Shown: one piece after another, positions 1 to 46,998 of the stretch
Numbering within the stretch: the first letter of the stretch is position 1
How the letters are laid out: the number at the start of each line of letters is the position of its first letter
Assembly (NCBI GenBank): GCA_963805945.1
Contig: CAWDVP010000001.1
Span: 256,001-320,000 of the forward strand
Reading direction: 5' to 3'
Origin: Vulcanimicrobiota bacterium
GTDB taxonomy: Bacteria; Vulcanimicrobiota; Vulcanimicrobiia; Eremiobacterales; Eremiobacteraceae
DNA length: 64,000 nt
Position numbers and translations under genes: made by a program
Notes under the pieces: generated by a model
The model's input: only the letters and a program-made list of their open reading frames with translations
What the model was told of the DNA's origin: nothing
The model's database searches: none

Positions 1-82
1 TGGCGCTGTGCGCAGCGCTCTTCCTGCGCGACGAGGCCTTGCGGCAGGCGCCCTAGCCTCGGCTGCGTGAACTAGGACGGCT

Positions 83-4366: not shown

Positions 4367-5598
4367 AGCAGCCGTTCCCTTGGGCTGAGACGATCATCTT
4401 GAGCTTGGCGGTCGCGTCGCTGCTGCTGATCACGTATGCGAACGCACGGCGCCAGGCGGCGCAAGCGCCGCGCTACGACACGTTCTCCTCGTATGACGCG
4501 CACACGGGCGGCTATCGCGCATGGTACGAGCTCCTCCAGCGCGAGGGCATCCACGTCACCCGCTTCGAGCGGCGCCCCGCCTTCCTCGACGATTCGATCG
4601 GCACGCTCATCGCATCCGCCAACACCATGGAGACGGTCCTGCGCGGCCAGGCCACCGGCGACGTGACCGGCTCGCTTCAGGCGATCGACATCGAGAACTT
4701 GAAGCGATGGGTCCAAGCGGGCGGCCGCCTTGTATGGGTCAGCGACGGCTCGTCGGATGAGCCGCTCGTGCAGACGTCCCTGATCGATTCCGGCCAGCAG
4801 CGCGACGACGCTGTGCCGCTGGCTCGTGCACCGGTCACTCAAGACGTGACGTCGGTATCGGGCCCCGGGCAGCGGCGCGTGGCGTACGGGGCCAACGCGC
4901 GCCTGGAGCCCCTCATCGGCGACGGTTCCGGCGCCGTGGTGGCGGACTATCCGTTGGGCAAGGGCCGCATCATCGTCGTCACGGATCAGAATCTCTTCGA
5001 CAACAAGCACATCGCCGCGGCCGGCAACGCCCAGCTCGCGCTCAACCTCGCAACCGGCGGGCCGCGCGGCTCCGTCGCCTTCTTCGAATGGGTGCACGGC
5101 TACGCGGCGGGCGGTTCCTGGTGGACCATCCTCCCCATGCCGGTGCGCGCGGCGGTGATCATCGTCCTCGTGGCCGCCCTGCTGCTGCTCGTCGGCACCG
5201 CGTTGCGCTTCGGCCCGACCGCACGTCTACCAGAAGATGCCGAGCGCACATCGGCGGAGTATCTGTCGTCGATGGCGCAGTTGCTCGCGCGGGGCAAGGC
5301 GGCGCGCAAGGCGATCGGCGACCTTGCCGCCGTCACGCTGCGCGATGTCGCGACCGCGCTCGGGCTGACGGAGCGTGCGACCGTCGCCGAACTGGTGACA
5401 CGGCTGAGCTTCGGCCAGGACGGCGAGGCCCGCGTGGAGCAGTTGCGCGAGCTCGACCGCATACGCGCGCTCGCTCATCCGAGCGACGCCGACCTCATAC
5501 GTGCGGCGCAGATATGCGCGCTCTTACGAAAGGAATACACGCGTTATGGCCGCATCGGCTTCGGTCGTCGCCCAGCGCCTCTCCGCCGGTCTGCATAA
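4363..5598 (+). CDS. DUF4350 domain-containing protein
   Basis: SSYDAHTGGYRAWYELL, WVQAGGRLV, LGKGRIIVVTD...FDN...GNAQLA motifs, C-terminal TM then RFGP; GTG overlaps upstream TGA. Confidence 0.7.
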   Translation: MKQPFPWAETIILSLAVASLLLITYANARRQAAQAPRYDTFSSYDAHTGGYRAWYELLQREGIHVTRFERRPAFLDDSIGTLIASANTMETVLRGQATGDVTGSLQAIDIENLKRWVQAGGRLVWVSDGSSDEPLVQTSLIDSGQQRDDAVPLARAPVTQDVTSVSGPGQRRVAYGANARLEPLIGDGSGAVVADYPLGKGRIIVVTDQNLFDNKHIAAAGNAQLALNLATGGPRGSVAFFEWVHGYAAGGSWWTILPMPVRAAVIIVLVAALLLLVGTALRFGPTARLPEDAERTSAEYLSSMAQLLARGKAARKAIGDLAAVTLRDVATALGLTERATVAELVTRLSFGQDGEARVEQLRELDRIRALAHPSDADLIRAAQICALLRKEYTRYGRIGFGRRPAPLRRSA

Positions 5599-6565
5599 GA
5601 TCGTCGTCGGCCAGGACGACGCGATCTTCGCGCTGCAGCTCGCGCTGCTCGCGGCCGGCCATGCGCTGATCGAAGGCGTGCCCGGCACCGCGAAGACGCT
5701 CATCGTGCGCGTGCTCGCGCTCCTGCTCGGCGCGGACTTCCGGCGCATCCAGTTCACGCCGGACCTGATGCCCTCCGACGTCGTCGGCACGACGGTGTTC
5801 AATCCCAAGAGCGGCGAGTTCTTCACCCGCAAGGGACCGATCTTCACGAACCTGCTGCTCGCCGACGAGATCAACCGGACGCCGCCCAAGACGCAGTCGG
5901 CGATGCTCGAGGCGATGGAGGAGCGCCAGGTGACGATCGACGGCGTCTCTTTCCCGCTGCCGACGCTGTTCATGGTGTGCGCCACGCAGAACCCGGTGGA
6001 ATACGAGGGCACCTATCCGTTGCCCGAGGCGCAGCTCGACCGCTTCATGGTCAAGTGCGCCACGGATTACCCTGCCGAGAGCGAAGAAACAATTCTGCTC
6101 GAGCGCGTCGCCGCCGGCTTCGACGCGCGCTTTCTCGAGCGCGAAGGCATCACGGCGCTGGTCACCGAGGGCGAGATCGAGGCGGCGCGACAGGATGTGC
6201 GTGCGGTGCACGTGGCGCCGGGACTGCGCAAATACATCCTCGACGTCGTCACCGCGACACGCCAGGCCGCCGACGTGAGCCTCGGAGCGAGCCCGCGCGC
6301 CGGCATCCAGCTGCTCGTCGCGGCGCAAGCCGCCGCAGCGATGGACGGGCGCGACTTCGCCACGCCCGATGATGTCAAAGCCACCGCGCACTTCGTGCTC
6401 GCGCATCGGCTCCTCGTCCGGCCCGAAGCGGAGATCGAAGGGCTGAGCGCTTCCGATGTGGTGAAGCGGACGTTGGACTCGGTGACCGTGCCCAAAGATG
6501 CGTCGCCGTCCGCCGCGCCTGGCGCTGCGCCGGAAGGACCCGCGCAACCGGCCGCCGGCGAGTGA
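5546..6565 (+). CDS. MoxR family AAA+ ATPase
   Basis: GHALIEGVPGTAKT (Walker A), RIQFTPDLMPSD, LLADEINRTPPKTQSAMLEAM, ATQNPVEYEGTYPLPEAQLDRF, GASPRA. Confidence 0.95.
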   Translation: MAASASVVAQRLSAGLHKIVVGQDDAIFALQLALLAAGHALIEGVPGTAKTLIVRVLALLLGADFRRIQFTPDLMPSDVVGTTVFNPKSGEFFTRKGPIFTNLLLADEINRTPPKTQSAMLEAMEERQVTIDGVSFPLPTLFMVCATQNPVEYEGTYPLPEAQLDRFMVKCATDYPAESEETILLERVAAGFDARFLEREGITALVTEGEIEAARQDVRAVHVAPGLRKYILDVVTATRQAADVSLGASPRAGIQLLVAAQAAAAMDGRDFATPDDVKATAHFVLAHRLLVRPEAEIEGLSASDVVKRTLDSVTVPKDASPSAAPGAAPEGPAQPAAGE

Positions 6566-22619: not shown

Positions 22620-25433
22620 TCAGGACTTCAGCTTCGCGATAAGCTCCGCACGCGAGCCGGCTTCCATCTTCGTGAGCACGGAGGAGACGTGGGTCTCGAC
22701 GGTGCGTTCGCTGATGACGAGCGCCTCGGCGATCGCTTTGTTGGTCTTGCCCTGCACGAGCAGGTCGCAGATCTCGCGCTCGCGGGCGGTGAGCTCGCTC
22801 TTGGTCCGCCCACGCCGGTTGACGGGGTTGAGCAGCGCCTCGAGGCGGCGCGCATCGCGTGCCGCGCCGGTCCGTCTGTAGATCTCGAACGCCTCGGGCA
22901 TCTCGCCCGCGAGTTCGAGCGCCTGCGCTTCGAGCAAGGGCCAGCCGATCGCCTTGAACCGCGCCGCCGCGTCGCGCGCCGCTGCGGCGGCCGCTTCACG
23001 GTCCTTGGACCGGTGACGTTCGAAGGCGTCGAACAGCGCGAGATATGCCGGCAGCGTGGCCACTGCGGAGAGGTCTGCGGTGCGCTGCAGCAGCGCTCGC
23101 GCACGCGGCGCGTCCGCGAGATCGCCGTGCTGCGCCACCATCGTCAGCAGGCGCTCGGCGTCGCTCGGACCGGGATGCGACGTGATATGCTCGAGCGCGT
23201 CGAGCGCGCGGTGCAGCAGGGCAGCGGCTTCGTCGTGTTTGTTCTGCGCCGCGTGCCGCTCGACAAACGCGGCGAGCGCGCCGATGAGCGTCGAGTCGGT
23301 GGAGGTGAGACCGAAATCGATGAGGTCTTTCTTGGCGGTGCGACGCACCAGCTCGTCGTCGTTGAGGGCGAGCCCCAATGGGATCGCGACGCCCGCGAGG
23401 TGGATGCGAAAACTCGGCATTTCGATGCCCGCGGCGAGCGCTTCGTCGACGAGCGCCTTCGCCCGCGCCAACTCCCCTTCGAGGAGCGCGGCGTACGCGG
23501 CGTAGACGAGCGTCCAGTTGACCGTGAGACCGCCGAGTTTTGTCGCTCGCGCGATCTCCAACGCCCGTTCAAAACCGCCTCGCGCCGCCTCGCGCTCACC
23601 GATGAGCGCCATGATGCCGGCGTAGTTCCCCCAGCAGCGCACCGCCGCGCGGACGTCGCGCTCGAGCGCGGCCGCCTCGACCGCCTTCGTGGTGAATTCG
23701 AGCGCTTCGCGCGGCCGGCCGAGCCCGATCGCGAGCGACGCACGGTTCTCCCAGAAGCTCACGAGCTCGGCCGGCCGCCGCGCTGCCGCAGCGCGCTCCG
23801 CCTCGCGTTCGTGCTCGCGGGCCTTGTCGGGGTCCCAGCGATACGACGTGTGAAGACCCAGCAGCTCGACATGCGTGAAGAAGAAAGCGGGACTTGCCGG
23901 ATTCGATCCGACCAGCTCGAGCGCCAGACGACAGTCGCGCAGGTGCCCCTCTGTGTCTCCCAGCGTGAGGCGCTGACGGGCGAGACGGAGCGCCGTCCGC
24001 GCTGCATCCTCAGTGGCGTCTGCCGACCGGTAGTACGCGAACGCTTCTTCCAGCGCTCGAACCGCTCGTTCTCCGAAACCGGCTTGATGCAGCACATCGG
24101 CGAACTTGCGGTTGAGCGCGGCGCGCTGTGGGCCTGCGAGCGCGCCCGTATCGAGGGCGCGGCCGTAGCACGTCACCGCATCCCGGTAGGCGAAGAATTC
24201 AAACGCGAGATCGCCGGCGCTCTCGTTGTAGCGAGCGGCCTTCTCGGCGTCGTGCGACTGCCAGTAATGGTATGCCAGCTCGGCGATATGCGCCTCGACG
24301 TCGGCAGAGGCCTCGAGCGCGTCCCCGATGCGCCGATGCAGGCCGCGCGTCTCGGCGACCAGCAGCTCGGCGTAGAGCGCTTCGCGGATGAGCTCGTGCC
24401 GGAAGGCGTAACGGATATCGGTGCCGGCCTCCTCGACGAGCAACTGCAGACCGATGGCGCGCTTGAGCATCTCGATGACGCGCTCGATCTCGCGACCGGA
24501 GATCGCGGCCAGGAATTCGGCGCTGAAGCGGCGCCCGATCGCCGCGGCCTGCGCGAGCAGCGTCCGATCGAGATCGTCCATGCCCGCGACGCGTTCGCTG
24601 ACCGCTTGGGCCACCGAGCCCGGCAGCTGCCGGCTATTCGCGCGGTCGCCCGCTTCGACGTTCTTGAGCAGCTCTTCGGCGAACAGCGGATTGCCTTCGG
24701 CCCGTTCGCAGATCGCGCCGACCGTGACGGCCGGCAAGGGCGCCCTATCCTCCAACGCCCGTTCCACCAGCTCGCGCATATCGGCGTCGGTCAACGGCCC
24801 GAGATCGAGGCGCTGCACCTGCGGATATCGGCCGAGCTTGGCCAACACGGACCGCAGCTGGTGTCCGCGGGGCAGTTCATCAGAGCGGAAAGTGACGACG
24901 ATGACGAGTCGCGACGCCACGATGCGCGGCGCGAGATGCAGCAGCAGCTCCAAGGTCGCGCTATCCGCCCATTGGAGATCCTCGATGACCACGACCGTCG
25001 GCGTCGCCGCAGCGAAGCGCACCAGCGCGTCGGCTAAGGCGTTGAACTGGAGCAGTTTATCACGCGCGGGCTCCGCTGCAGTCACGCCCGCCTCTGCGAG
25101 CGCCGGCAGCAGCGGTGCGATCGCTTTGCGCAGCGCGGTCGCGCCGCGCAAAGCCGATGGTTCGATGACATCGAGCGTCTCGATGACGGCGAGGAACGGC
25201 GCGAAGGGAGATTGGACGTATTCGAGACAGCCGCCGACCGCGCAGCGGGCGCCGCGCCCCTCGAGGCTCGCGCAGAACTCGGCGACGAGCCGGCTCTTGC
25301 CCGCGCCGCCGTCGCCTGCCACGATGCAGAGCGAGCCCTCGCCCCGCTCTGCCGCGACGATGCGATCCCGCAGCGCGGCGAGTTGCGGCCAGCGATTGAC
25401 GAGACCCCGCCCGTGCGGAGGTGGAGTCGGCAT
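22620..25433 (-). CDS. STAND-type AAA ATPase / TPR / LuxR-HTH transcriptional regulator
   Basis: GDGGAGKS Walker A, VIEDLQWAD Walker B, EGNPLF, FRHELIREALY, C-terminal LTAREREI...TNKAIAEALVISERTVETHV. Confidence 0.9.
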   Translation of the reverse strand: MPTPPPHGRGLVNRWPQLAALRDRIVAAERGEGSLCIVAGDGGAGKSRLVAEFCASLEGRGARCAVGGCLEYVQSPFAPFLAVIETLDVIEPSALRGATALRKAIAPLLPALAEAGVTAAEPARDKLLQFNALADALVRFAAATPTVVVIEDLQWADSATLELLLHLAPRIVASRLVIVVTFRSDELPRGHQLRSVLAKLGRYPQVQRLDLGPLTDADMRELVERALEDRAPLPAVTVGAICERAEGNPLFAEELLKNVEAGDRANSRQLPGSVAQAVSERVAGMDDLDRTLLAQAAAIGRRFSAEFLAAISGREIERVIEMLKRAIGLQLLVEEAGTDIRYAFRHELIREALYAELLVAETRGLHRRIGDALEASADVEAHIAELAYHYWQSHDAEKAARYNESAGDLAFEFFAYRDAVTCYGRALDTGALAGPQRAALNRKFADVLHQAGFGERAVRALEEAFAYYRSADATEDAARTALRLARQRLTLGDTEGHLRDCRLALELVGSNPASPAFFFTHVELLGLHTSYRWDPDKAREHEREAERAAAARRPAELVSFWENRASLAIGLGRPREALEFTTKAVEAAALERDVRAAVRCWGNYAGIMALIGEREAARGGFERALEIARATKLGGLTVNWTLVYAAYAALLEGELARAKALVDEALAAGIEMPSFRIHLAGVAIPLGLALNDDELVRRTAKKDLIDFGLTSTDSTLIGALAAFVERHAAQNKHDEAAALLHRALDALEHITSHPGPSDAERLLTMVAQHGDLADAPRARALLQRTADLSAVATLPAYLALFDAFERHRSKDREAAAAAARDAAARFKAIGWPLLEAQALELAGEMPEAFEIYRRTGAARDARRLEALLNPVNRRGRTKSELTAREREICDLLVQGKTNKAIAEALVISERTVETHVSSVLTKMEAGSRAELIAKLKS

Positions 25434-25502: not shown

Positions 25503-25970
25503 CTAGCGCTTGCGTTTGGACTTCGCGGCAGCCGCTTTCCCTTTGGCCTTCGGCTCCTTCTTCAGCGCTGCCGGATAGCCCGACTGGACGTGGCCACCGC
25601 CTGGCGGCCAGGGGAAGGGCAAGCGGGGGCGAGGTACTCCGGGATCGCCAGGCGCGTCCGGCCAGACATGTTGGACGTGGCCGCCGATGTAAGGATTCTC
25701 GGGGTTCGTCCGCAGACCGTGCTGGACATGGCCGCCCTGCATGGCTTTACCCTGATGCTCGGCGTCTATCTCTTGGTTGACGTCGTGCGCCCTATCCTTC
25801 GGAGGGCTCTCTTTGAAGAGGCCGACTTGCTTCATCGTCAGACCGTACGCGTCGGCCCAACCGGCGGTGTCGGCGTCGCCGTAAAAATCGTTGCGCGCGT
25901 CCTCATCAAAGGTGAGGAGCAACGCAAGCGCGGTGAATCGGTAGTAGGTGCCTGACGTTCTGCGCGCCAT
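25503..25970 (-). CDS. Putative split-borosin RiPP precursor: LigA-like borosin-binding domain, 3x GGHVQ repeats, Lys-rich tail
   Basis: AAGGAG SD; N-terminus LTFDEDARNDF...AYGLTMKQV resembles the SonA BBD pattern; lies directly downstream of a borosin methyltransferase. Confidence 0.75.
   Translation of the reverse strand: MARRTSGTYYRFTALALLLTFDEDARNDFYGDADTAGWADAYGLTMKQVGLFKESPPKDRAHDVNQEIDAEHQGKAMQGGHVQHGLRTNPENPYIGGHVQHVWPDAPGDPGVPRPRLPFPWPPGGGHVQSGYPAALKKEPKAKGKAAAAKSKRKR
25584..25736 (-). repeat. Three in-frame GGHVQ-encoding repeats in the precursor
   Basis: + strand ctggacatggccgcc (25722-25736), ttggacgtggccgcc (25671-25685), ctggacgtggccacc (25584-25598). Confidence 0.9.
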
Positions 25971-26034
25971 GATGCTACGCTCCTTTAGAAAGCACGAAGG
26001 CATTCTGACCGGTGCGTCAGGCGGCGGCCTTCTT

Positions 26035-26886
26035 TCAGCCCCGAGGGGGAACCTTCGCCTTCCGACGTCCCTTCGTGGAACGCGGCTGCACGGGTGACAA
26101 GCGCTGGAGCCCCAGCCGTCGCAGCATGCGCGCGTCGGTGGTTCCGGGCCGCTTGGGTGGCGCGTAGAGCGTGGACGTGACGCCGACCGATGCCCGTGCG
26201 AGATCCCGCAGTGCTACGCGTTGGATCGACGGCGCGGCGAGGGGCGTGGGCGCGGCGTCGTAGATCGTGACGACGTGTTTCGGACCGTACCGTCGGATCA
26301 GCTCTCGCGCGAGGATCGCCAGTCCGCTGCCGCCGTAGGTCTGCTTATGCGTGAGGTCGCCGACGACCCCGATCTGGAACAGCACGAGCGGAATCGTCGA
26401 TTCGAACTTCGGTCTGCTGATCAAGAACGATGTCGCCTCGAAGGTGAGGCAACCGCTCCTCGCCGGGTCGACACCCAGGTCTGCGAACAGGCAATCCTCG
26501 CTCGATACGCCGGGCAGCATCGCGGCGGCGCGGCCGGACTCTCTCACGCGCACGATCGCCTCCGCCGTCGCGTCGACGAAGACCCCTGGATGGCCGTATG
26601 TCACCATGCAGACGTTCTCACCGCGGCGCACGTACGAAAGGACATCTTTCACGATGGCCTCGTAGATCCGCGCCCGGATCCGACCTGGTTTGTAGTGATG
26701 ATTGAGGGGTTCGGCGGTCGGGTTCAGCCGCTTGATCATCGCGGCGGTGATGAAGTCGGTGACCAAGTGCAGGACCTTGTCGGCACGCGTGATCGCGACG
26801 CGAGCGCCCGGCGTCAGATCCCGCCCGATCTGTATCCCGGTCCCGACGACTGTGAGCGATCCGCGTCGGGTTTGCGCGCGCTTCAT
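26035..26886 (-). CDS. Borosin-type SAM-dependent peptide backbone alpha-N-methyltransferase (OphMA/SonM-like, tetrapyrrole methylase fold)
   Basis: GSLTVVGTGI, ADKV, Y-x5-R-x3-Y (HYKPGRIRARIY), YGHPGVFV, MLPGVSSEDCLFADLGVDP, GCLTFEAT, LVLFQIG motifs. Confidence 0.9.
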   Translation of the reverse strand: MKRAQTRRGSLTVVGTGIQIGRDLTPGARVAITRADKVLHLVTDFITAAMIKRLNPTAEPLNHHYKPGRIRARIYEAIVKDVLSYVRRGENVCMVTYGHPGVFVDATAEAIVRVRESGRAAAMLPGVSSEDCLFADLGVDPARSGCLTFEATSFLISRPKFESTIPLVLFQIGVVGDLTHKQTYGGSGLAILARELIRRYGPKHVVTIYDAAPTPLAAPSIQRVALRDLARASVGVTSTLYAPPKRPGTTDARMLRRLGLQRLSPVQPRSTKGRRKAKVPPRG

Positions 26887-26953: not shown

Positions 26954-27463
26954 CTAGTTCGCGGCGGCTGCCGGTGCGCGGCGCGCGACGAGCGAGAGCA
27001 ACGCGCCTGCGACAGCGGCCACGATTATGATCCATGCTGCGTTCGGATCGCTCAAGAGCCCGAGCGGCGCTTGCGCATCGAGCGCATAGGCGCCGACGCC
27101 GCCAAAGGCGATCGCGAGCGCGGCGGCGATATTCGCGAGATTGTACTCGTAGCCGCCGTTGCTCGCCCAAAATCCCTTGCCGAAATGCACGGTGGCGATA
27201 GCGACGATCATCACCGCGATGATGAGCGCCGGGCCGACCGGATTGAGCCAGCCGAGCGCCGTGAGCAATCCGCCTGCGAGCTCACCGAAGCCGGCGACGA
27301 ACGCGAAGAGCACTCCCGGCTTCATGCCGAGGCCTTCGAAGAAGCCGCCGGTGCCTTTGAGGCCATAGCCGCCGAACCAGCCGAACAATTTCTGCGCGCC
27401 GTGCGCGAAGAAGATGGTGCCGAGCAGCAGGCGCGCGATGAGGAGTCCAATGCTTGTGATCAT
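26954..27463 (-). CDS. DoxX family membrane protein
   Basis: ARLLLGTIFFAHGAQKLFGWFGG, VHFGKGFW..NGGYEY; TATAAT 6 nt before ATG. Confidence 0.92.
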   Translation of the reverse strand: MITSIGLLIARLLLGTIFFAHGAQKLFGWFGGYGLKGTGGFFEGLGMKPGVLFAFVAGFGELAGGLLTALGWLNPVGPALIIAVMIVAIATVHFGKGFWASNGGYEYNLANIAAALAIAFGGVGAYALDAQAPLGLLSDPNAAWIIIVAAVAGALLSLVARRAPAAAAN

Positions 27464-27469
27464 GACGGG

Positions 27470-27517
27470 ATTATAGTCTTAAATGGGCCATAATGTAAGT
27501 ACGGACTATTATGACCC
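27470..27517 (-). promoter_or_regulatory. Leaderless sigma70 -10 (TATAAT) and upstream inverted-repeat operator of doxX
   Basis: ATTATA at 27470-27475 on +; GGGCCATAAT-N13-ATTATGACCC at 27485-27517. Confidence 0.55.
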
Positions 27518-27536
27518 TAAATATCGAATAGGAAAG

Positions 27537-28448
27537 TCACTGAGCGGCGCGACACTGTTGATTGCCGCTATCGGTGAACGCGTACCCGGCGATCGGCGCG
27601 AAGCGCCACGCAAACGAGTGCGGGTGCAATGTCAAGAACAACACGCCGAACGTGCCGGCGGCCCGCGACTCGCTGTTCTGTCCTATCTTTAGAAAGATCG
27701 AGTGACTGCGCCCTCCCGTGCCGACCACGAACTCGGTGATGCCGCGCGCCGTGTCCGCGGCGCCCGCAGGCGTCTGCGGCGCAAAGCGCTCGTAGTCGTG
27801 GTCGTGACCGGCCAGCACGACATCCGCATCCGCCGCGTAGAGATCGTTCCAGAACGGCGCATAGCGCGGATCGCTGTTGTGCGTGCCTGAGGAGAAGCGC
27901 GGCTGATGCCAATACGCCAGCGTGCACGCCGCGTGATGCTGCGCCAAGTCCGCGCGCAGCCAGCGTTCCTGCGGCGAGCCCAGCCCGCAACCGCCGATGA
28001 AGTCGCAATTGCCGTTGAGCGCGATGATGTGCCAGCGTCCGAGGTCGAAGCTGTAGTAGCCTTTCGCCGGCGCGCCGGCGCTGGCCCCGAAGTACGCGAA
28101 GTAGCCTTCCGCGCGCGTTGATGAATAGTATTCGTGATTGCCCGGCGTCGGGTGCGTGATGGCTTTGACCTGGCCCCACGAGGCCTGATACGAGTGCTCG
28201 AACGCTTCGAGCGCACCATCTTCATATTGCTCGTCGCCGAGCGTGAGGACTGCGTCAGGATGCGCAGCGGCGATCAGTTTGTACGTTTGTGCTGCTTGAC
28301 AGCCGCCGAACATCGACTCGATGTTCGAACCGAGATGCGGCCTGCTGTCGCACGCGATGTCGCCGGCCGCAGCGATGAGCGGATCGTGCGGCGGGGTGTG
28401 GATAGGAGCCGCTGTTACGATGCTGAGAGCTGCGAGGAGCGCGAACAC
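27537..28448 (-). CDS. Secreted metallophosphoesterase (calcineurin-like / purple acid phosphatase-like)
   Basis: AAGDIAC, LGDEQY, PGNHEY, YWHQP, LAGHDHDYER, VGTGG; GTG start with GAGGAG SD. Confidence 0.9.
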   Translation of the reverse strand: MFALLAALSIVTAAPIHTPPHDPLIAAAGDIACDSRPHLGSNIESMFGGCQAAQTYKLIAAAHPDAVLTLGDEQYEDGALEAFEHSYQASWGQVKAITHPTPGNHEYYSSTRAEGYFAYFGASAGAPAKGYYSFDLGRWHIIALNGNCDFIGGCGLGSPQERWLRADLAQHHAACTLAYWHQPRFSSGTHNSDPRYAPFWNDLYAADADVVLAGHDHDYERFAPQTPAGAADTARGITEFVVGTGGRSHSIFLKIGQNSESRAAGTFGVLFLTLHPHSFAWRFAPIAGYAFTDSGNQQCRAAQ

Positions 28449-28485
28449 GCGCTCCTCTTCTTGAGCCGAGCCGCCCCGCCTTCGA

Positions 28486-28508
28486 CCCGAGCTTCGCTCG
28501 GGCGCCAC
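28486..28508 (-). repeat. REP family C (CCCGAGCGAAGCTCGGG hairpin)
   Basis: CCCGAGCTTCGCTCGGGCGCCAC on +. Confidence 0.7.
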
Positions 28509-28520
28509 AGAGCTCGGACC

Positions 28521-29792
28521 CTACAGCAAGGGTCGCACGTAGCGGCGCCACACGAAGACGGCGATCAGCACCAGCGGCAGCCAGAACGGCGCGAACGCGA
28601 TGATGGTGAGCAGCCGCGAGACGAGCTTCACGGAGACCTTCTTGACGCTGATCAGCGCGGCTTTCCAGGCATCGGCGATCTGCACGCCGGCGCTCGGTTC
28701 GACGGTCGCGGCCGGCTTTTCGTCTTGGATGCCGATGGAGATGGTCGAATACGCCACGCGATGCTGCATCGACTGGAGCTGCGCGTCGAGCTGCTCGATC
28801 TGCTCGCGGACCTGTGCGATCTGCTGCGTCACCTCGAGCACATCGGGGATCTTGCCCGCGCGGTCCATGATGCGCAGCATGTCGCCTTCGGTGCGACGCA
28901 GGTTGCGCAAGCGCGCCTGCGCGTCGACGATCTGATCGGAGACGTTCTCGGCGCTGATGGAACGGGCTTGCACCGTGCCGAGCGCGGCGAGCGCGCTCAT
29001 CGTCTGGTCGAAACGATCGGACGGTACGCTGATCTGCACTTGCGCCGAGTGCCGGATGCCGGGCTGATAGGGCGTCTGGTCGTCGAGCGACACGATGTCG
29101 CCGAACTGTAGCTGCGCGACGCCCGCCAGCTGGCGCAGCGCCGCTTCGACGTCGGGCACGATAAGGTAGATGTTGCCGGTGCGGATGAGCTGCGGCCGCG
29201 TGATGCCGCCGGGCGGAATGCTCTTGTACAAGCTCTGCACGGCGCCCATCTCAGCCGGGGGAGCCGCCGGAGCAGCCGCCGGCGCACCGCCCATGGCCCC
29301 TTGCGGCAGATTGCTCGCCGAGCGCGTGGTGACCGCGTCGAGCGTCTTCGCCCGCTCGCCGGCCACGGGCTGATTGACAGGTTGACTCATGCTGTGAAGG
29401 AGCGGCTGGGGCTCGACCGCCACCACGCTCTCCGGCGGCCCCGACCAAGGACGAGCGACGATGATCAGCAGCGCGATCGCCGCCGCCGCGAGCGAAAAGA
29501 CCTTGCCGAGCGCGGGCAGCCTCCGCCACCACGCCGTCAGCGAGACCGTGGCGGGCGTCTGGGGCTCGGCGCTGGCGCGCGCAAGCGTGCGGCCGAGCAG
29601 ATAGTCGGAAGGACCGGGCGCGTCTTTTTCGATCTCGTGCAGCGCCGCATGCAGTTGCCGTAGCTGCTCGAGCTCGGCCGCGCACAGCGGGCACGTCGCC
29701 AGCTCGGACTCGACGGCGGCGCGGTCCTGCGGCGGCAGCGTGCCGTTGACGTACCAGGGCAGCAGTTCGACGATCCGTTCGTGTTGCATCAC
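28521..29792 (-). CDS. Anti-sigma factor: zf-HC2-like N-terminus, TM, DUF4349 domain
   Basis: ELLPWYVNGTL...CPLC; DUF4349-like AENVSDQIVDAQARLRNL...VREQIE; coupled to ECF sigma. Confidence 0.8.
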   Translation of the reverse strand: MMQHERIVELLPWYVNGTLPPQDRAAVESELATCPLCAAELEQLRQLHAALHEIEKDAPGPSDYLLGRTLARASAEPQTPATVSLTAWWRRLPALGKVFSLAAAAIALLIIVARPWSGPPESVVAVEPQPLLHSMSQPVNQPVAGERAKTLDAVTTRSASNLPQGAMGGAPAAAPAAPPAEMGAVQSLYKSIPPGGITRPQLIRTGNIYLIVPDVEAALRQLAGVAQLQFGDIVSLDDQTPYQPGIRHSAQVQISVPSDRFDQTMSALAALGTVQARSISAENVSDQIVDAQARLRNLRRTEGDMLRIMDRAGKIPDVLEVTQQIAQVREQIEQLDAQLQSMQHRVAYSTISIGIQDEKPAATVEPSAGVQIADAWKAALISVKKVSVKLVSRLLTIIAFAPFWLPLVLIAVFVWRRYVRPLL

Positions 29793-30361
29793 ATCTCTCT
29801 CCGAACGCCCCGGTCATCAAGTATACGGCGCAGTTGCTGTTTCGCGTAGAAGACCCGCGTCTTGACCGTGTTGAGCGGACAGCCGACGATGCCGGCGATC
29901 TCCGCCTGTGAATATCCGTTGATGAACGTCAGCTCGAGCACGGAGCGGTGCTCGGGCGACAGCGCGTCGAGCGCGTCGCGCACGCCGCGCATGAGGCTGC
30001 CCGCGAGCGCGACCTCCTCTGGCCCTCGCTGCGGATCGGGCGCGTCCGCGAGCGTGGCCAGCTCGATCGCCTGCGGCGCGTGACGCCGCAGCGAGTCCAT
30101 CGCCTTGTGATGCGCGATGCCGAAGATCCAGGTCGACACCTTCGATTGGCCGCGGAAGCGAGCCGCGCTCTTCCACACCTCGAGCATGACGTCGCCTTGC
30201 AGCTCTTCCGCGGTCTGCGGTGTTCGCACGAGCCCGAGCAGATAGCGGTACAGCCGATGTTCGTATGCGCGGAAGAGGCGTTCGAACGCAGCGCGATCGC
30301 CCCGCGCGATGAGCTGCAGGTCGGGAAGATCGCCGTCTGGTGTGCTGCTCTGCGGCGTCAT
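29789..30361 (-). CDS. ECF (sigma-70 group 4) RNA polymerase sigma factor
   Basis: GDRAAFERLF, AEEL..DVMLEVW, STWIFGIAHHKAMD, YSQAEIA...LNTVKTRV. Confidence 0.92.
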   Translation of the reverse strand: MTPQSSTPDGDLPDLQLIARGDRAAFERLFRAYEHRLYRYLLGLVRTPQTAEELQGDVMLEVWKSAARFRGQSKVSTWIFGIAHHKAMDSLRRHAPQAIELATLADAPDPQRGPEEVALAGSLMRGVRDALDALSPEHRSVLELTFINGYSQAEIAGIVGCPLNTVKTRVFYAKQQLRRILDDRGVRREM

Positions 30362-34867: not shown

Positions 34868-35317
34868 CTATTCGCGGACGTACTTGATGAACGACGTCCG
34901 CTTTGCGAGCGTGTCATAGAGCGCACGCGCGTCGGCGTTATATTCCTGCGTCAACCAATACACGCTGCTCGCGCCCGCCGCGTCGGCCGCTTTGTAGACC
35001 GCCTCGATCAGCGCGCGGCCGGCGCCAAGCCCGCGCGCGTCCTCAGCGACGAAGAGGTCCTCGAGGTAGCAGTACTCGCCGATCGACCACGACGCGCGGT
35101 GGAAGAGATAGTGGACGAACCCGACGATGCGGCCCTCGCTCACGGCGAGCAATCCGTGGGGCTGTTCATGCACGTCCAGCAGGCGACGCCACGTCGCCTC
35201 GGTCACTTCCGCATCGAGCCTCGCGCGATAGAACCTCAGATAGCCGTGCCAGAGCTCTTCCCAGCGCGCTCGATCGGCGGGCAGCGGGGCGCGCAACGTG
35301 ATGCCCGTCGCGCTCAT
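34868..35317 (-). CDS. GNAT family N-acetyltransferase
   Basis: [36 protein letters not shown]. Confidence 0.92.
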
Positions 35318-38115
35318 ACGGTGTCGTCATCCTCCGATTCTTCGTCATCTGGTTTGTTCAATGAGTCGGGCGGCAGCAGCCCTCGGCGGCGCGCCTCGGC
35401 CACCGCCCTCGTCCGCGATGCCGCACCGAGCTTCGCGAGCACGCGCTCGACGTGCGTCTCCACCGTCCTTGTGCTCACGTCGAGCCGCTGCGCCACCTCC
35501 TTGTTCGAGAGTCCGAGCGCGACGAGCGAAAGCACCTCTAGCTCACGCTTCGTGAGTGCCTCCCCGCGCGGGACACGGCGCGTGCGCTTTGCCTTCGGGC
35601 CGTGCAGCCAGCCGAGCTGCGTCGACCGCAACGCGATCTGCACGTCGGCGCGCCGCTGCCCGATCGGGCGCAACAACTCCGCGATCGCGGCCGCCTCGAA
35701 TCGGGCGCCGCCATGCTCTAGCTTCTCGTAGCCTGCCGCCGCTGCTCCGGCAGCATCGGCAAGAGCGCTGCCCGCACCCGTGTTGAGCCCTCGGATCGCG
35801 CTGCTCAAATCGTGCAGTTCGGCGACATCCCGGCGGGCGGCGATGAAGCGGTGGAATCGTTTCGCGGCCGGCAACTCATGGAGCGCCGCGACCGGCTCGT
35901 CCGGACCGACCGCGAGCGCCAGCTCGAGCATCGCGCCAGCCGACGCGAGCAATGCCGCGTCGACCGCGTCTATGGGCTCGACGCCCGTGACGTCGGCGAT
36001 CGCCTCCGCGCGCGCCGTGGACGCGTCGGAGCTTTCTAGGAGCGTCGCATACAGCGCGGCGTCCGCCTTCATCGCCGCGCGTTCGGGTGGCGGCGGCGAG
36101 GTCGACGCAAGCGCGGCGCGCACGATCTGCAGCGCTTGCGCGGCCGCTCCACCCACGAATGCGCAGCGCGCGAGCATCCGCTGTGAGTGCGCAGCCATGC
36201 GCCTGCGATCCGGGGCATACCATGCGACGGCGGCATGCTCGCGCAGGGTCTCGGCGGCATGCGCGCATTTCTCACGCTCTCCCGCCCCCGCGTGGATCTC
36301 CACAAGCACGTAGTAGACGTTGGCCATTTCGGTCTGCAAGTTCAGGTCGCGCCCGAGCACGGTTCCCTGACGCGCGTAGTCGGCCGCAGCGTTGATGTCA
36401 CCCCAGAGCAGCGACAGGCGGGCGTACCAGAACAGCGCGCAGCACAGCAGGACCACATGCTCTGATGGCTCGAGATCGCGCAGCAGCTCGCTCATCCTCA
36501 TATCTGCCCGCGCGAAGTCGCCGAGGCAGGTCGCCGCATACGCATACAGGAGCGCGGCACGGAAGCGCAGCACGGGCGACGCCGCTCCCAGTTCGGCGGC
36601 CGTCGCGGCTTTCTCAACTGCGGTCACGTAGTCGCCTTCGATCGTCTTGGTCCATCCCAGCAGGATCAGTGCGGTGGCCCGCTGCTGTGTGCCCAGCGCG
36701 TCCGCTTCTCTGACGAACCCGCCGATCTCGCCGACGACCTCAGGGTCGACGCTGTCCAAAGCGCCCCAGAGCAGCTGCACGCGCAACGCGAAGATGGACT
36801 CCTCGTCGCGCAGCTGTTTCGCGATCTCCAGAGCGGTGAGGAACAGCTCGCGTGCGCCAGGCATGCCGCGCTGGCGCATCAGCATGCCCTGGACTCGGCC
36901 GACGAGGACGGGGACATCAGCGCCGCGTTTGCCGAGCTCCCTGACCGCGCGCCCGGCCTGTTCTCCATGGCCGTCGGCGAACAGCGTGTCGGCGTGGATG
37001 GTGAGGAATAGTGCGAGCCGTTTCTCGTCTCGCGACCTCTCGAAATGGAACAACGCCGGCGCATGCAGGCCCGCCGCTTCGAGCATGTCGCCGGCCCAGA
37101 CATGGAGACGCGCGACGCCGTCGTCGCCGTCTCGCTCCCGGATCCGATCGAGCAGCGCTTCGCGCATGAGCGAATGCTGCCGATACGTCTCGCCCGACCG
37201 CAACACCGCAAGCATCTCGCCGCGCCGTTCCAGCTCCCGCAGCATGCGGCGCGCCGCCGGAAACCCGCCGTGCTGCTCAAGGACCGAGGCCTCGAGCACG
37301 TCGAGCGTCGCGGTGCGCTCCAAGAACCCGGTGAGCTCGTCGGGCAGTGTCGCGACGTGCGCGGTGATGAGCTGGGTGACCAGCGGCGCGTCGGGTGTCG
37401 CATGCGCAGTGGTCGCGTCCGCTTGAGCGCCGACCAGCAGCGAGATGCCGGCGGGCCAGCCTTCACAGCGAGCGCATAGCTCGGCCGCCATACGCTCGTC
37501 CAGATCCGCACCATGCTTGCGCGCCAAGAGCGCCGTCTCCGAATCGCTGAACTTCAGATCGTCGACGCCGAACATCACCGCACGGCCTTGCGATGTCCAC
37601 TCCGCCAGCGGGAGCGAGGGAGAGCTGCGGCCGATGAGCAGCAGCGTCACGGTCTCGGGGAGCTGGCGCATCGCGCCCGTGATGAAATCGGAAAGCGCCA
37701 GATCGCCTTCGAGCACCTGGTAGTCCTCGATCACGAGGACGAGGCGTTCCGGGATGTGACCGAGCTCTTGCGCGAAGGCCGCACCGATGCGCGTGACCCA
37801 ACGCCGGAGCGCGTCGGCATCATCTGAAGGTGGGCGGCCGTGCGCTGCAAGCGCAAGCGTGAAGCGTCCGAAATCCTCGCGGACGGTGCTCACCTCCTCG
37901 ACGAGCGGCTCGATGAAGCCGCCGGCATGCCAGGGCTGCGCGGTGTACCACACCGCGGGCAGACCGACGGCGTCGACGGTCAGCGCGCCCGCCGACGTCT
38001 TGCCGTAACCCGCCGGCGCCTGGATGACGATGAGGCGATGCGAGCGGATAGCCATAGACACGGCCTCCACAAAGGAAGCCCTTGGAATGAGGTCTCGGAC
38101 GGAAGGAACCGGCAT
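35314..38115 (-). CDS. MalT-like STAND ATPase / LuxR-HTH regulator
   Basis: [32 protein letters not shown]-terminal LTKRELEVL...SNKEVA..RTVETHV. Confidence 0.9.
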
Positions 38116-44019: not shown

Positions 44020-45270
44020 CTAGAGCTGGTAGGCGACCTCGGCATGCTGCGAGACGTCGAGGCCACGCTCTTCCTCGCCTTGCGACACGCGCAGCGGCAC
44101 GATGCGTTCGACGGCCTTGAGGATGAGGAACGTCATCCCGCCCGAGTAGACCCACGACACCGCCACCGCGAGCGCCTGCACCGCCAACTGGTGGGGATTC
44201 CCCGCGAAAAGACCGTTCGCTCCGGCCGCGTTCACCGCCACTGTGGCGAATAGGCCGGTGGCGATCGCGCCCCAGGTCCCGCCCACGCCGTGAACCGCCC
44301 ACACATCGAGGGAGTCGTCGACGCTGTGCATGCGCTCGCGCCATTGGATCGCCAAATAGCAGACGATGCCGGCGCCGAAACCGATGAGGATCGCGCCGAG
44401 CGACGTCACGTAGCCGCACGCGGGCGTGATGGCGACGAGCCCCGCGACCGCTCCGGCGGTCGCGCCGAGCACGCTCGGCGTGCCCTTGCGCCACCAATGG
44501 ATCGTCATCCAGGTGAGCGCCGCCATCGCGGCCGCGAGGTTGGTGGAGACGAACGCGCTCGCCGCCAATCCGCCTGCCGAAAGCGCTGAACCCGCGTTGA
44601 AGCCGAACCATCCGAACCAGACCAGCACGCCGCCCAGGACGACGAGCGTCATGTTATGGGGCTCGGTGTTGCGGTCAGGCGCGACGCCGATGCGCCGGCC
44701 CAACACGAACGCCGCCACAAGCGCCGAGACGCCCGACGTGATGTGCACGACCGTGCCTCCGGCGAAATCCAGGGTGCCCAGCTTGTTGAGCCACCCGCCC
44801 TGGCCCCAGACCCAATGCGCGATGGGATCGTAGACGAACGTCGCCCACAGCAGCGTGAAGAGCACGAACGCCTTGAAGTGCTTGCGCTCCGCGAAACCGC
44901 CCGAGATCAGCGCCGGCGTGATCACGGCGAACATCATCTGGAACACGCAAAACGCGAGGTGCGGGATCGTCGGCGCGTACGACGAGGGGGTTTGCCCGAC
45001 GCCTTGCAGCCCGAGCCATTGCAGCCCCCCGATGATCCCGTGGAACGAACCGAGGAAATTGGCGTCGGGGCCGAACGCCAGCGTGTAGCCCCATAGCGCC
45101 CATTGGATGCTGATAAGGCATAGGATGAAGAAGCTGTGCATGAGCGTCGCGAGCGCGTTCTTGCGCCGGACGAGGCCGCCGTAGAAAAAGCCGACCGCGG
45201 GGGTCATGAGCATGACCAACGCGGCGGAAGCGAGCACCCAAGCGGTGTCGCCGGCGCTGATTGCGTGCAT
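44020..45270 (-). CDS. amtB: Ammonium transporter
   Basis: GDTAWVL, FYGGLVRRKN, FQMMFAVIT, DFAGGTVVH, WFGWFGFNAGS, DDSLDVWAVHGVGG; AAGGAGG SD. Confidence 0.97.
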   Translation of the reverse strand: MHAISAGDTAWVLASAALVMLMTPAVGFFYGGLVRRKNALATLMHSFFILCLISIQWALWGYTLAFGPDANFLGSFHGIIGGLQWLGLQGVGQTPSSYAPTIPHLAFCVFQMMFAVITPALISGGFAERKHFKAFVLFTLLWATFVYDPIAHWVWGQGGWLNKLGTLDFAGGTVVHITSGVSALVAAFVLGRRIGVAPDRNTEPHNMTLVVLGGVLVWFGWFGFNAGSALSAGGLAASAFVSTNLAAAMAALTWMTIHWWRKGTPSVLGATAGAVAGLVAITPACGYVTSLGAILIGFGAGIVCYLAIQWRERMHSVDDSLDVWAVHGVGGTWGAIATGLFATVAVNAAGANGLFAGNPHQLAVQALAVAVSWVYSGGMTFLILKAVERIVPLRVSQGEEERGLDVSQHAEVAYQL

Positions 45271-45423
45271 CGGCGCGACCTCCTTGGGACCACAGTATAG
45301 CGCGGCGCGCGACGAAATGCTTTCGACGAATGTCGAAGCGTGCAGCGCGACATGCAGCCACTTGTCTACTCGAGAGACCCGCAGGACGAGGTCGCCCCGG
45401 CGAGCACCGCCAAAGCGACCGGT

Positions 45424-46998
45424 ATGCGACCGCTCGTGCTCGTGGCAGAACCGCTCGCCGTAGAAGGCATCGCCGTCCTGCGCGAGGGCGGCGTCGAGGT
45501 GCGCGAAGCATTCGACCAGTCGAGGAGCGCCCTGAAGGCGCTGCTGCACGATGCGCACGCGCTGATCGTGCGCAGCAAGACGACCGTGGACGCCGACATG
45601 CTCGACGGCGCCCCATCGCTGCGCGTCGTCGGCCGAGCGGGCGTCGGAGTGGACGCGATCGATGTCGTGGCCGCCACGCGCGCCGGCATCGTGGTGCTCA
45701 ACACGCCGGATGCGAGCACGCTGGCGACGGCAGAGCACACCATGGCCGTCTTGCTGGCGCTCTGCCGCAACGTGAGCGCCGGTCACGCGCGCGTGCTCGC
45801 CGGGCAATGGAGCGCCAAAGGACTCATCGGAACCGAACTCGCGGGTAAGACCCTCGGTATCGTCGGGCTCGGTCGCATCGGCGCGGCCGTCGCCGCGCGT
45901 GCGCGCGCGTTCGCCATGAACGTGCTGGCGCACGACGCCTTCGTCAGCGAGGCGCGGGCCGAGTCTCTCGGCGCACGGCTCGTGCCCTTGGACGAATTGT
46001 TGAAGCGCGCTGATTTCGTGACGCTGCACGCGCCGCTCACGCCGCAGACGCAGGGTCTCATTGGCGCCGATCAGCTTGCGCTGATGAAACCCGCCGCGCG
46101 GCTCGTCAACTGTGCGCGCGGCGGCTTGGTCGTCGAGGAAGCGCTGCTCGCCGCCCTCGACGCAGGCACGATCGCCGGTGCGGCGCTCGATGTCGTCCGT
46201 GACGAACCGCCGCCGCCCGGGCATCCTGTGTGGCGGCTGCTGCAACACCCACACGTCTTCGCGACGCCGCACCTCGCGGGCTCGACCCACGAGGCGCAAG
46301 CACGCATCGCCGCCGACCTGTGCCGCGACGTCGTCGCCGTGCTCTGCGGCCAACCGCCGTCGGCGGCCGTCAATGCGCCGGTCGCCGCATCGCTGGAGGC
46401 GCGACCGTTCGTGGAGCTTGCGCATGCCCTTGGTCGCGCGTACCCGCAGCTCTCGCACGAGCCGGCGCTGCCCGCGTTCTCGTTGGTGCTCGAGGGCGAG
46501 TTGGCCGCGCACAATCCTCGCCCGTTCGCCGCCGCGTTCCTCCACGGGCTGCTCGGAAACGTGACCGACCGGCGCGTCTCGTCGGTCAACGCCGAGCAGG
46601 TCGCTGCCGAGATGGGCATCGCGCTCGAGATCTTGAGCGCGCCGTGCGAGCGGGGTTTCGCGCGCGCGCTGCTCGTGCGCGGCGGCAAGACGGCGCTTGC
46701 GGGCACGGTGGTGCACGGCGCGCAGCTGCGCATGGTCGAGATCGACGGTTTCGAGGTCGATTGCGCGCCGCAGGGCCACTCCATCGTGACGCGCCATCCC
46801 GACGTCCCCGGCATCGTGGGCAAGGCGGGCACGATACTCGGCGACGCTGCGATGAATATCTCGACGATGAACGTCGCCCGCCGCGAGGACGGAGAGGCGC
46901 TCATGCTGCTCGCGGTCGATCGGGCGCCGCCCGAATCCGTGCTCGCCGAACTGCGGCGCATCGCGGGCATGCGTGATGTCCGGGGCATCGAGCTGTGA
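45424..46998 (+). CDS. serA: D-3-phosphoglycerate dehydrogenase (long form with ASB and ACT domains)
   Basis: GRAGVGVD, GKTLGIVGLGRIG, NCARGG, TPHLAGST.EAQ, C-terminal DVPGIVG...NISTMNV. Confidence 0.92.
   Translation: MRPLVLVAEPLAVEGIAVLREGGVEVREAFDQSRSALKALLHDAHALIVRSKTTVDADMLDGAPSLRVVGRAGVGVDAIDVVAATRAGIVVLNTPDASTLATAEHTMAVLLALCRNVSAGHARVLAGQWSAKGLIGTELAGKTLGIVGLGRIGAAVAARARAFAMNVLAHDAFVSEARAESLGARLVPLDELLKRADFVTLHAPLTPQTQGLIGADQLALMKPAARLVNCARGGLVVEEALLAALDAGTIAGAALDVVRDEPPPPGHPVWRLLQHPHVFATPHLAGSTHEAQARIAADLCRDVVAVLCGQPPSAAVNAPVAASLEARPFVELAHALGRAYPQLSHEPALPAFSLVLEGELAAHNPRPFAAAFLHGLLGNVTDRRVSSVNAEQVAAEMGIALEILSAPCERGFARALLVRGGKTALAGTVVHGAQLRMVEIDGFEVDCAPQGHSIVTRHPDVPGIVGKAGTILGDAAMNISTMNVARREDGEALMLLAVDRAPPESVLAELRRIAGMRDVRGIEL

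Follow-up and report, generated by a model that had tools for sequence, protein, structure and literature searches.

Apart from one FkbM-type exception, no ribosomal route to peptides N-methylated on the backbone is known other than that of the borosins. The question raised by the present locus is whether two adjacent genes of a Vulcanimicrobiota bacterium encode a borosin system in split form, that is, a stand-alone N-methyltransferase (NMT) and, separately, its dedicated precursor carrying a borosin-binding domain (BBD). The two genes lie on the minus strand of a 64,000-nucleotide (nt) stretch of DNA (contig CAWDVP010000001.1, positions 256,001 to 320,000; hereafter the window), and an earlier reading of this stretch (hereafter the original prediction) had proposed such a system. 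In this study, the larger gene was identified, as judged from its sequence, as that of a borosin-type peptide alpha-N-methyltransferase. For the pair as a whole, we estimate a probability of about 0.65 that it is a Type IV split borosin pair, in which an NMT without a BBD would act on the adjacent 155-residue substrate, whose leader is strongly diverged and whose core is new, polar and repeated. In Type IV borosins, also called class 3, the NMT is separate, and the BBD and the core share one precursor (RODEO preprint; PMC11395268). It accounted for 746 members (78.8%) of the 2021 network and was by far the commonest type there (Imani et al.). The gene pair comprises the following features.

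26035..26886, minus strand: predicted borosin-type peptide alpha-N-methyltransferase, stand-alone, 283 residues (PDB phmmer, Pfam, NCBIfam, motifs)
25980..25985, minus strand: AAGGAG ribosome-binding site, with a 9-nt spacer to the ATG at 25970 (read in the sequence)
25503..25970, stop codon included, minus strand: putative precursor, 155 residues, in which a helical leader is followed by three core repeats and a polybasic tail (open reading frame, homologues)

The stand-alone methyltransferase

The open reading frame (ORF) of the enzyme ends with the stop codon TGA at 26035-26037, as read from the sequence. All the motifs that the original prediction had listed for this 283-residue protein are present in the translation: GSLTVVGTGI (residues 9-18), ADKV (35-38), HYKPGRIRARIY (64-75), VCMVTYGHPGVFV (92-104), MLPGVSSEDCLFADLGVDP (123-141), GCLTFEATSFL (145-155) and LVLFQIG (167-173). 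The catalytic domain extends over approximately residues 9-260 and is followed by a short basic C-terminal tail. The profile hidden Markov models (HMMs) behind the BorosinMT rule of antiSMASH are two, YGHP and DCLFAD (Imani et al.). Both were judged here as motifs in the translation and were found within YGHPGVF (residues 97-103) and EDCLFADLG (residues 130-138).

A phmmer search of all PDB sequences gave 25 distinct sequences at E<=0.01. All 25 were borosin enzymes, and no tetrapyrrole methylase was among them. The E-values were 1e-45 for dbOphM(A), approximately 2e-45 for OphA/OphMA, 2.4e-43 for SonM and 1.8e-39 for MroMA. The alignment with OphA is free of gaps across the first 180 residues or so. 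In this alignment, Y65, R71, Y75, Y97 and Q171 of the window enzyme pair with Y66, R72, Y76, Y98 and Q172 of OphA, and the offset of one residue between the two numberings was inferred from the agreement of all five positions. According to Song et al. (PMC6108569), methylation was undetectable in the R72A/K, Y76F and Y98A/F mutants of OphA and was lowered in the Y66F and Q172A mutants. Y63 of OphA aligns with N62 of the window enzyme, and this position is thus not conserved; in the same study, the activity of the Y63F mutant was merely lowered. An alignment of 28 NMT relatives shows no variation at R71, Y97 and Q171 and a conservation of at least 90% at Y65 and Y75. The PDB matches and the alignment agree with the original prediction, which had matched a Tyr/Arg/Tyr set to the catalytic residues of OphMA. 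The enzyme would be expected to depend on S-adenosylmethionine and to methylate peptide backbone amides.

Family models were also compared. Pfam gave TP_methylase alone (2.9e-18). The NCBIfam models of YabN and of precorrin and uroporphyrinogen methylases gave 13-33 bits against cut-offs of 163-525. With the PDB search, these scores place the enzyme closer to characterised borosin NMTs such as OphMA and SonM than to tetrapyrrole or YabN methylases, a comparison that the original prediction had named as a check. At least 1490 homologues were found at E<=0.001 among 6823 candidates; their public labels read 'YabN / precorrin methylase', and the sole named homologue of the small protein is labelled 'hypothetical protein', much as the original prediction had foreseen for automated annotation.

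Since the protein ends approximately 20 residues past its catalytic domain, it has no docking domain of its own. The PDB alignments span residues 4-265, and a search with the BBD profile gave nothing significant in any window ORF of at least 35 residues, the NMT ORF included. By alignment coverage and profile search, the 283-residue protein contains no BBD, no core and no additional domain.

Two further observations concern the enzyme family. The C-terminus of the window enzyme (26035-26103, minus strand) reads ..GRRKAKVPPRG and that of its relative P0005 ..RGKAKVPPRG, a conserved basic tail that echoes the polybasic end of the small protein. In addition, the homologues P0006 (494 residues) and P0011 (398 residues) have a tandem pair of NMT domains, resembling the duplicated-domain Type IX enzymes (Imani et al.).

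The adjacent small gene

The stop codon of the NMT gene is separated by 64 nt from the ATG of the small gene (25970) on the same strand, and the small gene ends with TAG at 25503-25505. The 155-residue ORF, its AAGGAG Shine-Dalgarno sequence and its position in the original prediction were confirmed in the sequence. An in-frame ATG further upstream (26003) would give 166 residues. Because both homologues begin at the MARR/MART position, however, 155 residues is the likely length.

A word-indexed search of 5.8 billion proteins found, besides the protein itself, two homologues: P0002 (83% identity, 154 residues) and P0003 (42%, 171 residues). An exhaustive HMMER profile search of 1.84 billion representative proteins again gave these two, together with P0124. 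The last is a repetitive ORF of 1054 residues that matches the W/P/G spacer alone, and it was rejected as unrelated. The N-terminal third of the precursor is conserved across all three family members. Pfam and NCBIfam assigned no family to the precursor, and Pfam found nothing in P0003. The best phmmer matches of the precursor in the PDB were at chance level, none being below E 0.26, and a look-up of residues 1-78 in the ESM Atlas returned nothing usable.

The GC contents at the three codon positions (0.68/0.49/0.75) follow a coding-type pattern. The third-position value is slightly under the 0.78-0.92 of the likely-gene ORFs in the window, which were themselves chosen by a third-position value of at least 0.78. 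With its conservation in two other proteins, its coding-type GC pattern and the synonymous divergence of its repeats (see below), the small ORF is a real gene. For both the closest NMT, P0005 (79%), and the closest precursor, P0002 (83%), the one source on record is a contig 2123 nt long, presumably the same for the two proteins, and enzyme and ORF seem to travel together.

Related loci and their precursors

A scan with one genome per species gave at least 558 confirmed NMT relatives among at least 601 pattern matches. The best 80 loci were kept, the top NMT identity being 50%; the window's own genome is not included. From these loci, 234 small ORFs (45-220 residues) on the NMT strand and within 500 nt of the NMT were gathered. 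In what follows, loci carry L numbers and single proteins P numbers.

An iterated search seeded with the upstream ORF of L003 yielded 38 ORFs in 37 loci, with the alignment consensus L..FL..L..DP.....F...P.......AGLS......L.SGD...I. Searched against the PDB, their profile matched the SonA chains (3e-14 to 1e-13) and the BBD of dbOphMA and OphMA (2e-4 to 9e-4), and the 38 ORFs are therefore regarded as genuine BBD precursors. The precursor of L006, spotted by eye, is on the opposite strand (1757-2086, minus strand; Pfam LigA E 0.0017). The BBD-type ORF of L009 is incomplete at the contig end and was judged by eye alone. A BBD-type small ORF adjoins the NMT in 39 of the 80 loci. By the same criteria, none was found in the other 41, most of which belong to a clade of 27 rows that is chiefly cyanobacterial.

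A quick maximum-likelihood tree was calculated from 86 NMT rows. The window NMT pairs with P0005 (Shimodaira-Hasegawa-like approximate likelihood ratio test (SH-aLRT) support 100), and this pair is joined by P0007 and L009 (97). The four stand within a set of seven rows together with L006, L010 and L064 of Vulcanimicrobiota/Eremiobacterota (92). The stem of the window enzyme and P0005 is long (0.58), which would fit a co-divergence of enzyme and leader.

Similarity of the leader to borosin-binding domains

The N-terminal part of the precursor was compared with the SonA-type BBD profile. The region in question is as follows.

25800..25943, minus strand: diverged BBD-like region, precursor residues 10-57 (hhalign, AlphaFold2 helices)

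With hhalign, residues 10-57 of the precursor-family profile aligned with positions 9-54 of the BBD profile, with a probability of 71.8% and an E-value of 3.5e-5. When the N-terminus alone was used, the probability was 82.9% and the E-value 9e-6. The score of the N-terminus was 28.6, against a mean of 9.6 (standard deviation 2.2, maximum 20.4) for 200 column shuffles, none of which reached it; the reversed query scored 7.8. The register is the one in which the original prediction had aligned the protein with the SonA BBD by eye. A BLASTP comparison with the L006 precursor gave E-values of 0.21 for the window precursor and 0.044 for P0003, in the right register but not significant. The BBD similarity of the N-terminus is weak yet non-random.

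A BBD is a LigA-like bundle of five helices. From an alignment of three sequences, AlphaFold2 predicted helices at precursor residues 7-21, 23-31, 35-41, 46-50 and 60-76. In the N-terminal model, the mean predicted local distance difference test (pLDDT) score was 72, with 82-85 over residues 11-50. Past the helices the protein is predicted to be disordered, and the full-length model had a mean pLDDT of 50.5. A prediction of the complex between NMT residues 1-265 and precursor residues 1-110, run without controls, gave a score of 0.00 and a mark of 0.32, and weighs neither way on binding. The N-terminus of the precursor is probably a strongly diverged BBD.

Core repeats and polybasic tail

The C-terminal half of the small protein is made up of the following elements and the spacers between them.

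25716..25736, minus strand: core repeat 1, GGHVQHG, residues 79-85 (kept in all three family members)
25665..25685, minus strand: core repeat 2, GGHVQHV, residues 96-102 (family alignment)
25578..25598, minus strand: core repeat 3, GGHVQSG, residues 125-131 (P0003 has this unit twice)
25506..25565, minus strand: polybasic C-terminal tail, residues 136-155, ending in KRKR (three of three family members)

Units of the form G-G-H-[V/I]-Q-[H/S] occur three times in the window protein and in P0002, and four times in P0003. Spacers rich in W, P and G and a Lys/Arg-rich tail ending in KRKR are common to all three proteins, and repeats and tail are kept despite an overall identity of 42%. The three window units are 76-88% identical in DNA and encode the same peptide, which fits selection on the protein. 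The core was said in the original prediction to be unlike those known, and this description holds: it is a polar, repeated GGHVQ[H/S] sequence as compared with mostly hydrophobic cores. The strings GGHVQH, GGHVQS and GGHIQH were not found in the literature searched.

The C-terminal composition has some parallels among the canonical BBD precursors. In those of L049 and L079 (Thermoplasmata), GG-x-HV precedes an end rich in Arg and Lys, that of L008, beside a related archaeal NMT, has GHV and a Lys-rich end, and that of L006 has a Gly run and a Lys-rich end. From this likeness, the window protein looks like a longer, multi-core version of a subtype with GG-x-HV and a basic tail. At least five Lys or Arg residues among the last 12 were counted in 6 of 39 canonical BBD ORFs and in all three members of the window family. 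Methylation, if it occurs, would be placed in or beside the H-V-Q stretch.

A peptide that starts with Gly-Gly-His carries the classical ATCUN tripeptide (amino-terminal, binding Cu(II)/Ni(II)), and the precursor spacers rich in W, P, G, H and Q resemble copper-binding octarepeats. One might thus imagine that a protease cuts before each Gly-Gly-His unit to give backbone-methylated metal-binding peptides, a borosin-derived metallophore. N-methylation would then tune amide coordination or shield the peptide from proteolysis. We consider this product to be very doubtful.

Gene neighbourhood

The following features surround the gene pair.

22620..25433, minus strand: AAA_16 ATPase/TPR/LuxR (GerE) regulator, 937 residues, 69 nt downstream of the precursor gene (Pfam)
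26954..27463, minus strand: membrane protein of the DoxX family, its gene 67 nt upstream of that of the NMT (Pfam DoxX, 3.3e-20)
27470..27499, minus strand: promoter-like site just before the DoxX gene, CTTACA, 18 nt, TATAAT (one site against 0.9 expected by chance)
27536..27553, minus strand: terminator-like hairpin after the phosphoesterase gene (sequence scan)
27537..28508, minus strand: metallophosphoesterase (Pfam)
28521..29792, minus strand: zf-HC2/DUF4349 anti-sigma-like protein (domain scan)
29789..30361, minus strand: extracytoplasmic function (ECF) sigma factor (domain scan)

The gaps along the row of DoxX, NMT, precursor and regulator genes are 67, 64 and 69 nt. By its position the promoter-like site is suggestive of a start for a transcription unit of these four genes, and DoxX may be co-transcribed with the NMT. 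The site ends 6 nt ahead of the DoxX start codon, so that a leaderless transcript would be implied. The counts of the promoter and terminator scans are not above those of shuffled sequence.

The large regulator is the only neighbour that recurs across the NMT loci. Full-length homologues stand directly after the NMT in L009 (50.6% over 933 residues) and in L006 (36.6% over 930 residues), where the NMT is followed by a regulator of the same kind with 935 residues. Regulator matches were obtained in 39 of the 80 loci; four were to the C-terminal helix-turn-helix only, and most others to part of the ATPase region only. No match at E<=1e-5 was found in the 80 loci for DoxX (with tblastn), the metallophosphoesterase, the CMAS-like enzyme and the anti-sigma factor, and the ECF sigma factor matches L040 alone. 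Neighbours other than the regulator are not treated as members of a conserved cluster. The 937-residue LuxR protein probably controls expression of the pathway, a predicted role. The words 'LuxR' and 'regulator' were absent from the two borosin preprints searched for them.

In a domain scan of 24 other neighbouring ORFs, genes of cobalamin or siroheme synthesis were absent; the scan returned the regulator, DoxX, the phosphoesterase, the sigma/anti-sigma pair, lipid-modifying enzymes and Sdh subunits, among others. SdhA of the window shares 87-88% identity with proteins named Candidatus Eremiobacteraeota, a phylum to which 15 of the 17 listed matches with an organism name belong.

Weighing of the explanations

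Because the 283-residue NMT has no BBD, the enzyme would require one in trans, which argues for the Type IV reading. In such a system, the N-terminus of the precursor (approximately residues 7-76) would dock on the NMT as a diverged BBD. The NMT would then methylate backbone amides after the leader, likeliest in or near the three GGHVQ[H/S] units and from N to C as in other borosins. A protease whose gene lies elsewhere may free the product, perhaps in the form of three short peptides, or the small basic protein may persist in its methylated state. Expression would be controlled by the downstream AAA_16/TPR/LuxR protein. We infer binding, methylation and its sites, cleavage and regulation from the arrangement of the locus.

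A number of results weigh against this reading. The BBD assignment depends on profile-profile comparison alone. The BBD HMM did not list the precursor at E<=10 when run on the window ORFs, and it gave P0003 an E-value of 1.2, in the right register but weak. In the reverse direction, the precursor-family HMM with default filters had no match at E<=10 among the 6434 ORFs of the 80 NMT loci. With the filters off, BBD ORFs ranked 2, 7, 8, 23 and 35 of the 6434, and the first three of these ranks count in favour of the match, but every one of the ORFs had an E-value of 8.8 or more. A profile of precursor residues 1-78 gave chance-level matches in the PDB and did not find SonA. Pfam LigA was silent on the precursor, as against 6e-5 to 7e-3 for canonical neighbour precursors. 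Foldseek searches of the PDB with the full-length and N-terminal models, which had no canonical-BBD control, gave nothing at E<=0.001 and no SonA among the matches listed. All 38 canonical BBD ORFs are upstream of their NMT, whereas the window precursor is downstream, and none of the 80 nearest genomic NMT homologues was found to have a member of its family alongside. The cores near related NMTs are mostly hydrophobic and rich in beta-branched residues, whereas the window core consists of polar Gly, His and Gln. Finally, domain scans found no protease or exporter in the immediate operon. The dedicated BBD precursor of the original prediction is supported, though weakly: the hhalign match and the five predicted helices speak in favour, and the HMM, LigA and Foldseek searches detect no such domain. 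Conservation of the ORF next to NMT homologues was seen in the apparent pairing of P0002 and P0005, and not at the 80 nearest loci.

If these results are given more weight, the enzyme would still be a borosin NMT, and the 155-residue protein would be unrelated to it, a small, basic protein rich in His that binds, for example, metal or nucleic acid, the true precursor being elsewhere or lost. The outcome of the HMM and fold searches fits this, and since in L009 and L006 the NMT is directly followed by the regulator, the window ORF has the look of an insertion. RODEO also left 733 previously identified NMTs without a precursor (RODEO preprint). The hhalign similarity is, however, correctly placed and above all 200 shuffles, no other BBD-like ORF exists within the 64-kb window, and enzyme and ORF seem paired in the closest relative. 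In addition, the two genes are tightly spaced on one strand, and a similar C-terminus, GG-x-HV plus basic tail, is seen in the genuine BBD precursors of related loci. We regard an unrelated protein as unlikely, although it deserves serious consideration. A different possibility is that the pair works as proposed and that the methylated, intact 155-residue protein is the end product, its tail targeting, for example, nucleic acid or the envelope. An operon without protease or exporter would suit such a product, as would the long basic tail and the proline/glycine-rich spacers kept across the family and the disorder of the C-terminal half in both structure predictions. The son cluster of Shewanella is likewise without a protease according to PMC10549244, yet a linear 16-residue peptide with two methylations is freed there. 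Moreover, L006 has an S9 peptidase gene near its precursor, and repeated cores are typical of multi-core precursors of peptides that are made by the ribosome and modified post-translationally (RODEO preprint; Imani et al.). An intact end product thus seems to us rather improbable.

The 283-residue protein might also be a tetrapyrrole (precorrin or uroporphyrinogen) or YabN-type methylase, in which case the small ORF would be irrelevant. The single Pfam match, the weak NCBIfam matches to YabN and precorrin models and the public labels of the homologues point in this direction, and the overall fold family (Pfam PF00590) is indeed shared with tetrapyrrole and YabN-N-like methylases. The bit scores far under the cut-offs, the borosin motifs and residues, the 25 borosin enzymes without a tetrapyrrole methylase in the PDB search and the 24 neighbouring ORFs without a cobalamin or siroheme gene all argue otherwise, and to this identity we give hardly any weight. 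The Type IV split borosin pair is the reading carried into the comparisons below.

Comparison with known systems

The closest known counterpart in organization is SonM/SonA, the Type IV system of Shewanella oneidensis (PDB 7LTC; PMC8429565, PMC10549244). In both, the NMT stands alone, with approximately 260-280 residues (E 2.4e-43), and the precursor is a second protein whose helical docking domain, here predicted, is N-terminal to linker and core; neither cluster has a protease, for the Shewanella one according to PMC10549244. The differences are, however, considerable. The window precursor has 155 residues, whereas the SonA chains in the PDB have 68-78. Its gene is downstream of the enzyme gene, and its BBD-like leader is missed by HMMs. 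In place of a single hydrophobic stretch, its core has a polar GGHVQ[H/S] unit occurring three times, and a polybasic tail of 20 residues follows. The neighbour is a LuxR-type STAND regulator, whereas GGDEF proteins have been reported as common neighbours of borosin loci (Imani et al.).

The fused Type I enzymes OphMA/dbOphMA of fungi (PMC6108569) provide the best match to the catalytic domain (1e-45), and their Tyr/Arg/Tyr/Tyr/Gln positions are kept. Enzyme, BBD and core of OphMA form one polypeptide that modifies itself within a dimer, whereas the window has two genes. The canonical BBD precursors of L049, L079 and L006 are, like the window protein, small ORFs adjoining a BBD-less NMT, with similar core and tail features. 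They are, however, single-core proteins of 82-109 residues, upstream or divergent, recognisably SonA/LigA-like and without a direct sequence match to the window protein at E<0.04.

Type V RceA and Types VI-VIII provide known cases of repeated cores, and repeats are a feature in the RODEO module (RODEO preprint). RceM/RceA (Type V; bioRxiv 10.1101/2021.12.24.474128) resembles the window pair in having several near-identical core repeats, each presumably modified. In Type V, however, the BBD is predicted in the enzyme and the leader is short, whereas the window enzyme is BBD-less and the precursor has the BBD-like domain. Few final borosin products are known, and the Shewanella one is described as the first bacterial product in PMC10549244.

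What is new at the window locus is the precursor family, the degree of BBD divergence, the polar three-fold core with its polybasic tail, the downstream gene position, the phylum Eremiobacterota and the link to a LuxR/STAND protein. A literature search for borosin and Eremiobacterota returned the FkbM-type case alone; the enzyme and precursor may stand in the supplementary RODEO Dataset 2 or in sequence similarity network datasets. Automated searches would overlook the precursor family added by this locus, for which Pfam and NCBIfam give no match and 1.84 billion representatives contain just two relatives. The analysis also shows large LuxR/STAND regulators recurring in association with this NMT clade. 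If the enzyme does methylate the precursor, the substrate range of borosin enzymes would be widened, and the pair would show how far a BBD can drift with enzyme pairing retained, which would be useful for genome mining and for the engineering of N-methylated peptides. The advance is incremental rather than conceptual, the gene pair being of a known type with an unusual peptide.

Other observations in the window and at related loci

Large LuxR-type proteins are not unique to the borosin locus in this genome, since the window holds a second example at 35314-38115 (minus strand), a protein of 933 residues with a C-terminal GerE/LuxR domain. Its gene has a 4-nt overlap with the downstream gene of a GNAT acetyltransferase (34868-35317, minus strand). 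In the ORF of 925 residues at 44020-46797 (minus strand), the ammonium-transporter domain is confined to residues 519-923. The N-terminal half of this ORF overlaps an ORF of 552 residues at 45340-46998 (plus strand) with an equally coding-like GC pattern, and the true transporter gene is probably shorter than the 925-residue ORF.

In L006, a Peptidase_S9 gene (prolyl-oligopeptidase family, with PD40 repeats; 3-1643, plus strand) is convergent to the BBD precursor gene (1757-2086, minus strand). OphP, which is reported to mature omphalotin, is an S9 enzyme, and the L006 peptidase is therefore a candidate maturase. In the chiefly cyanobacterial clade of 27 NMTs (for example, L071 2911-3798, L072 6807-7706, L073 7234-8121, L077 2512-2973 and L080 4433-5290), a TPR protein of approximately 295 residues was found just downstream in the loci viewed, and most of these loci have a STAND-like NTPase match approximately 5 kb downstream. 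This clade may have a different precursor or partner arrangement.

Some of the canonical precursors have distinctive cores. Those of three Actinomycetes (L001 5669-5974, L002 5690-5974 and L016 5678-5971) share, directly after the BBD, a conserved C-terminus rich in Trp, Ile and Cys (..RW[I/V]C[I/V]W[I/V]I), and the BBD has an inserted segment. The core of L039 (5631-5990) has KKPIV-type repeats and a Lys-rich end, and that of L065 (5671-5982) has three WVTS units. In L027 (Kitasatospora), two BBD precursors stand in tandem at 5264-5584 and 5640-5888.

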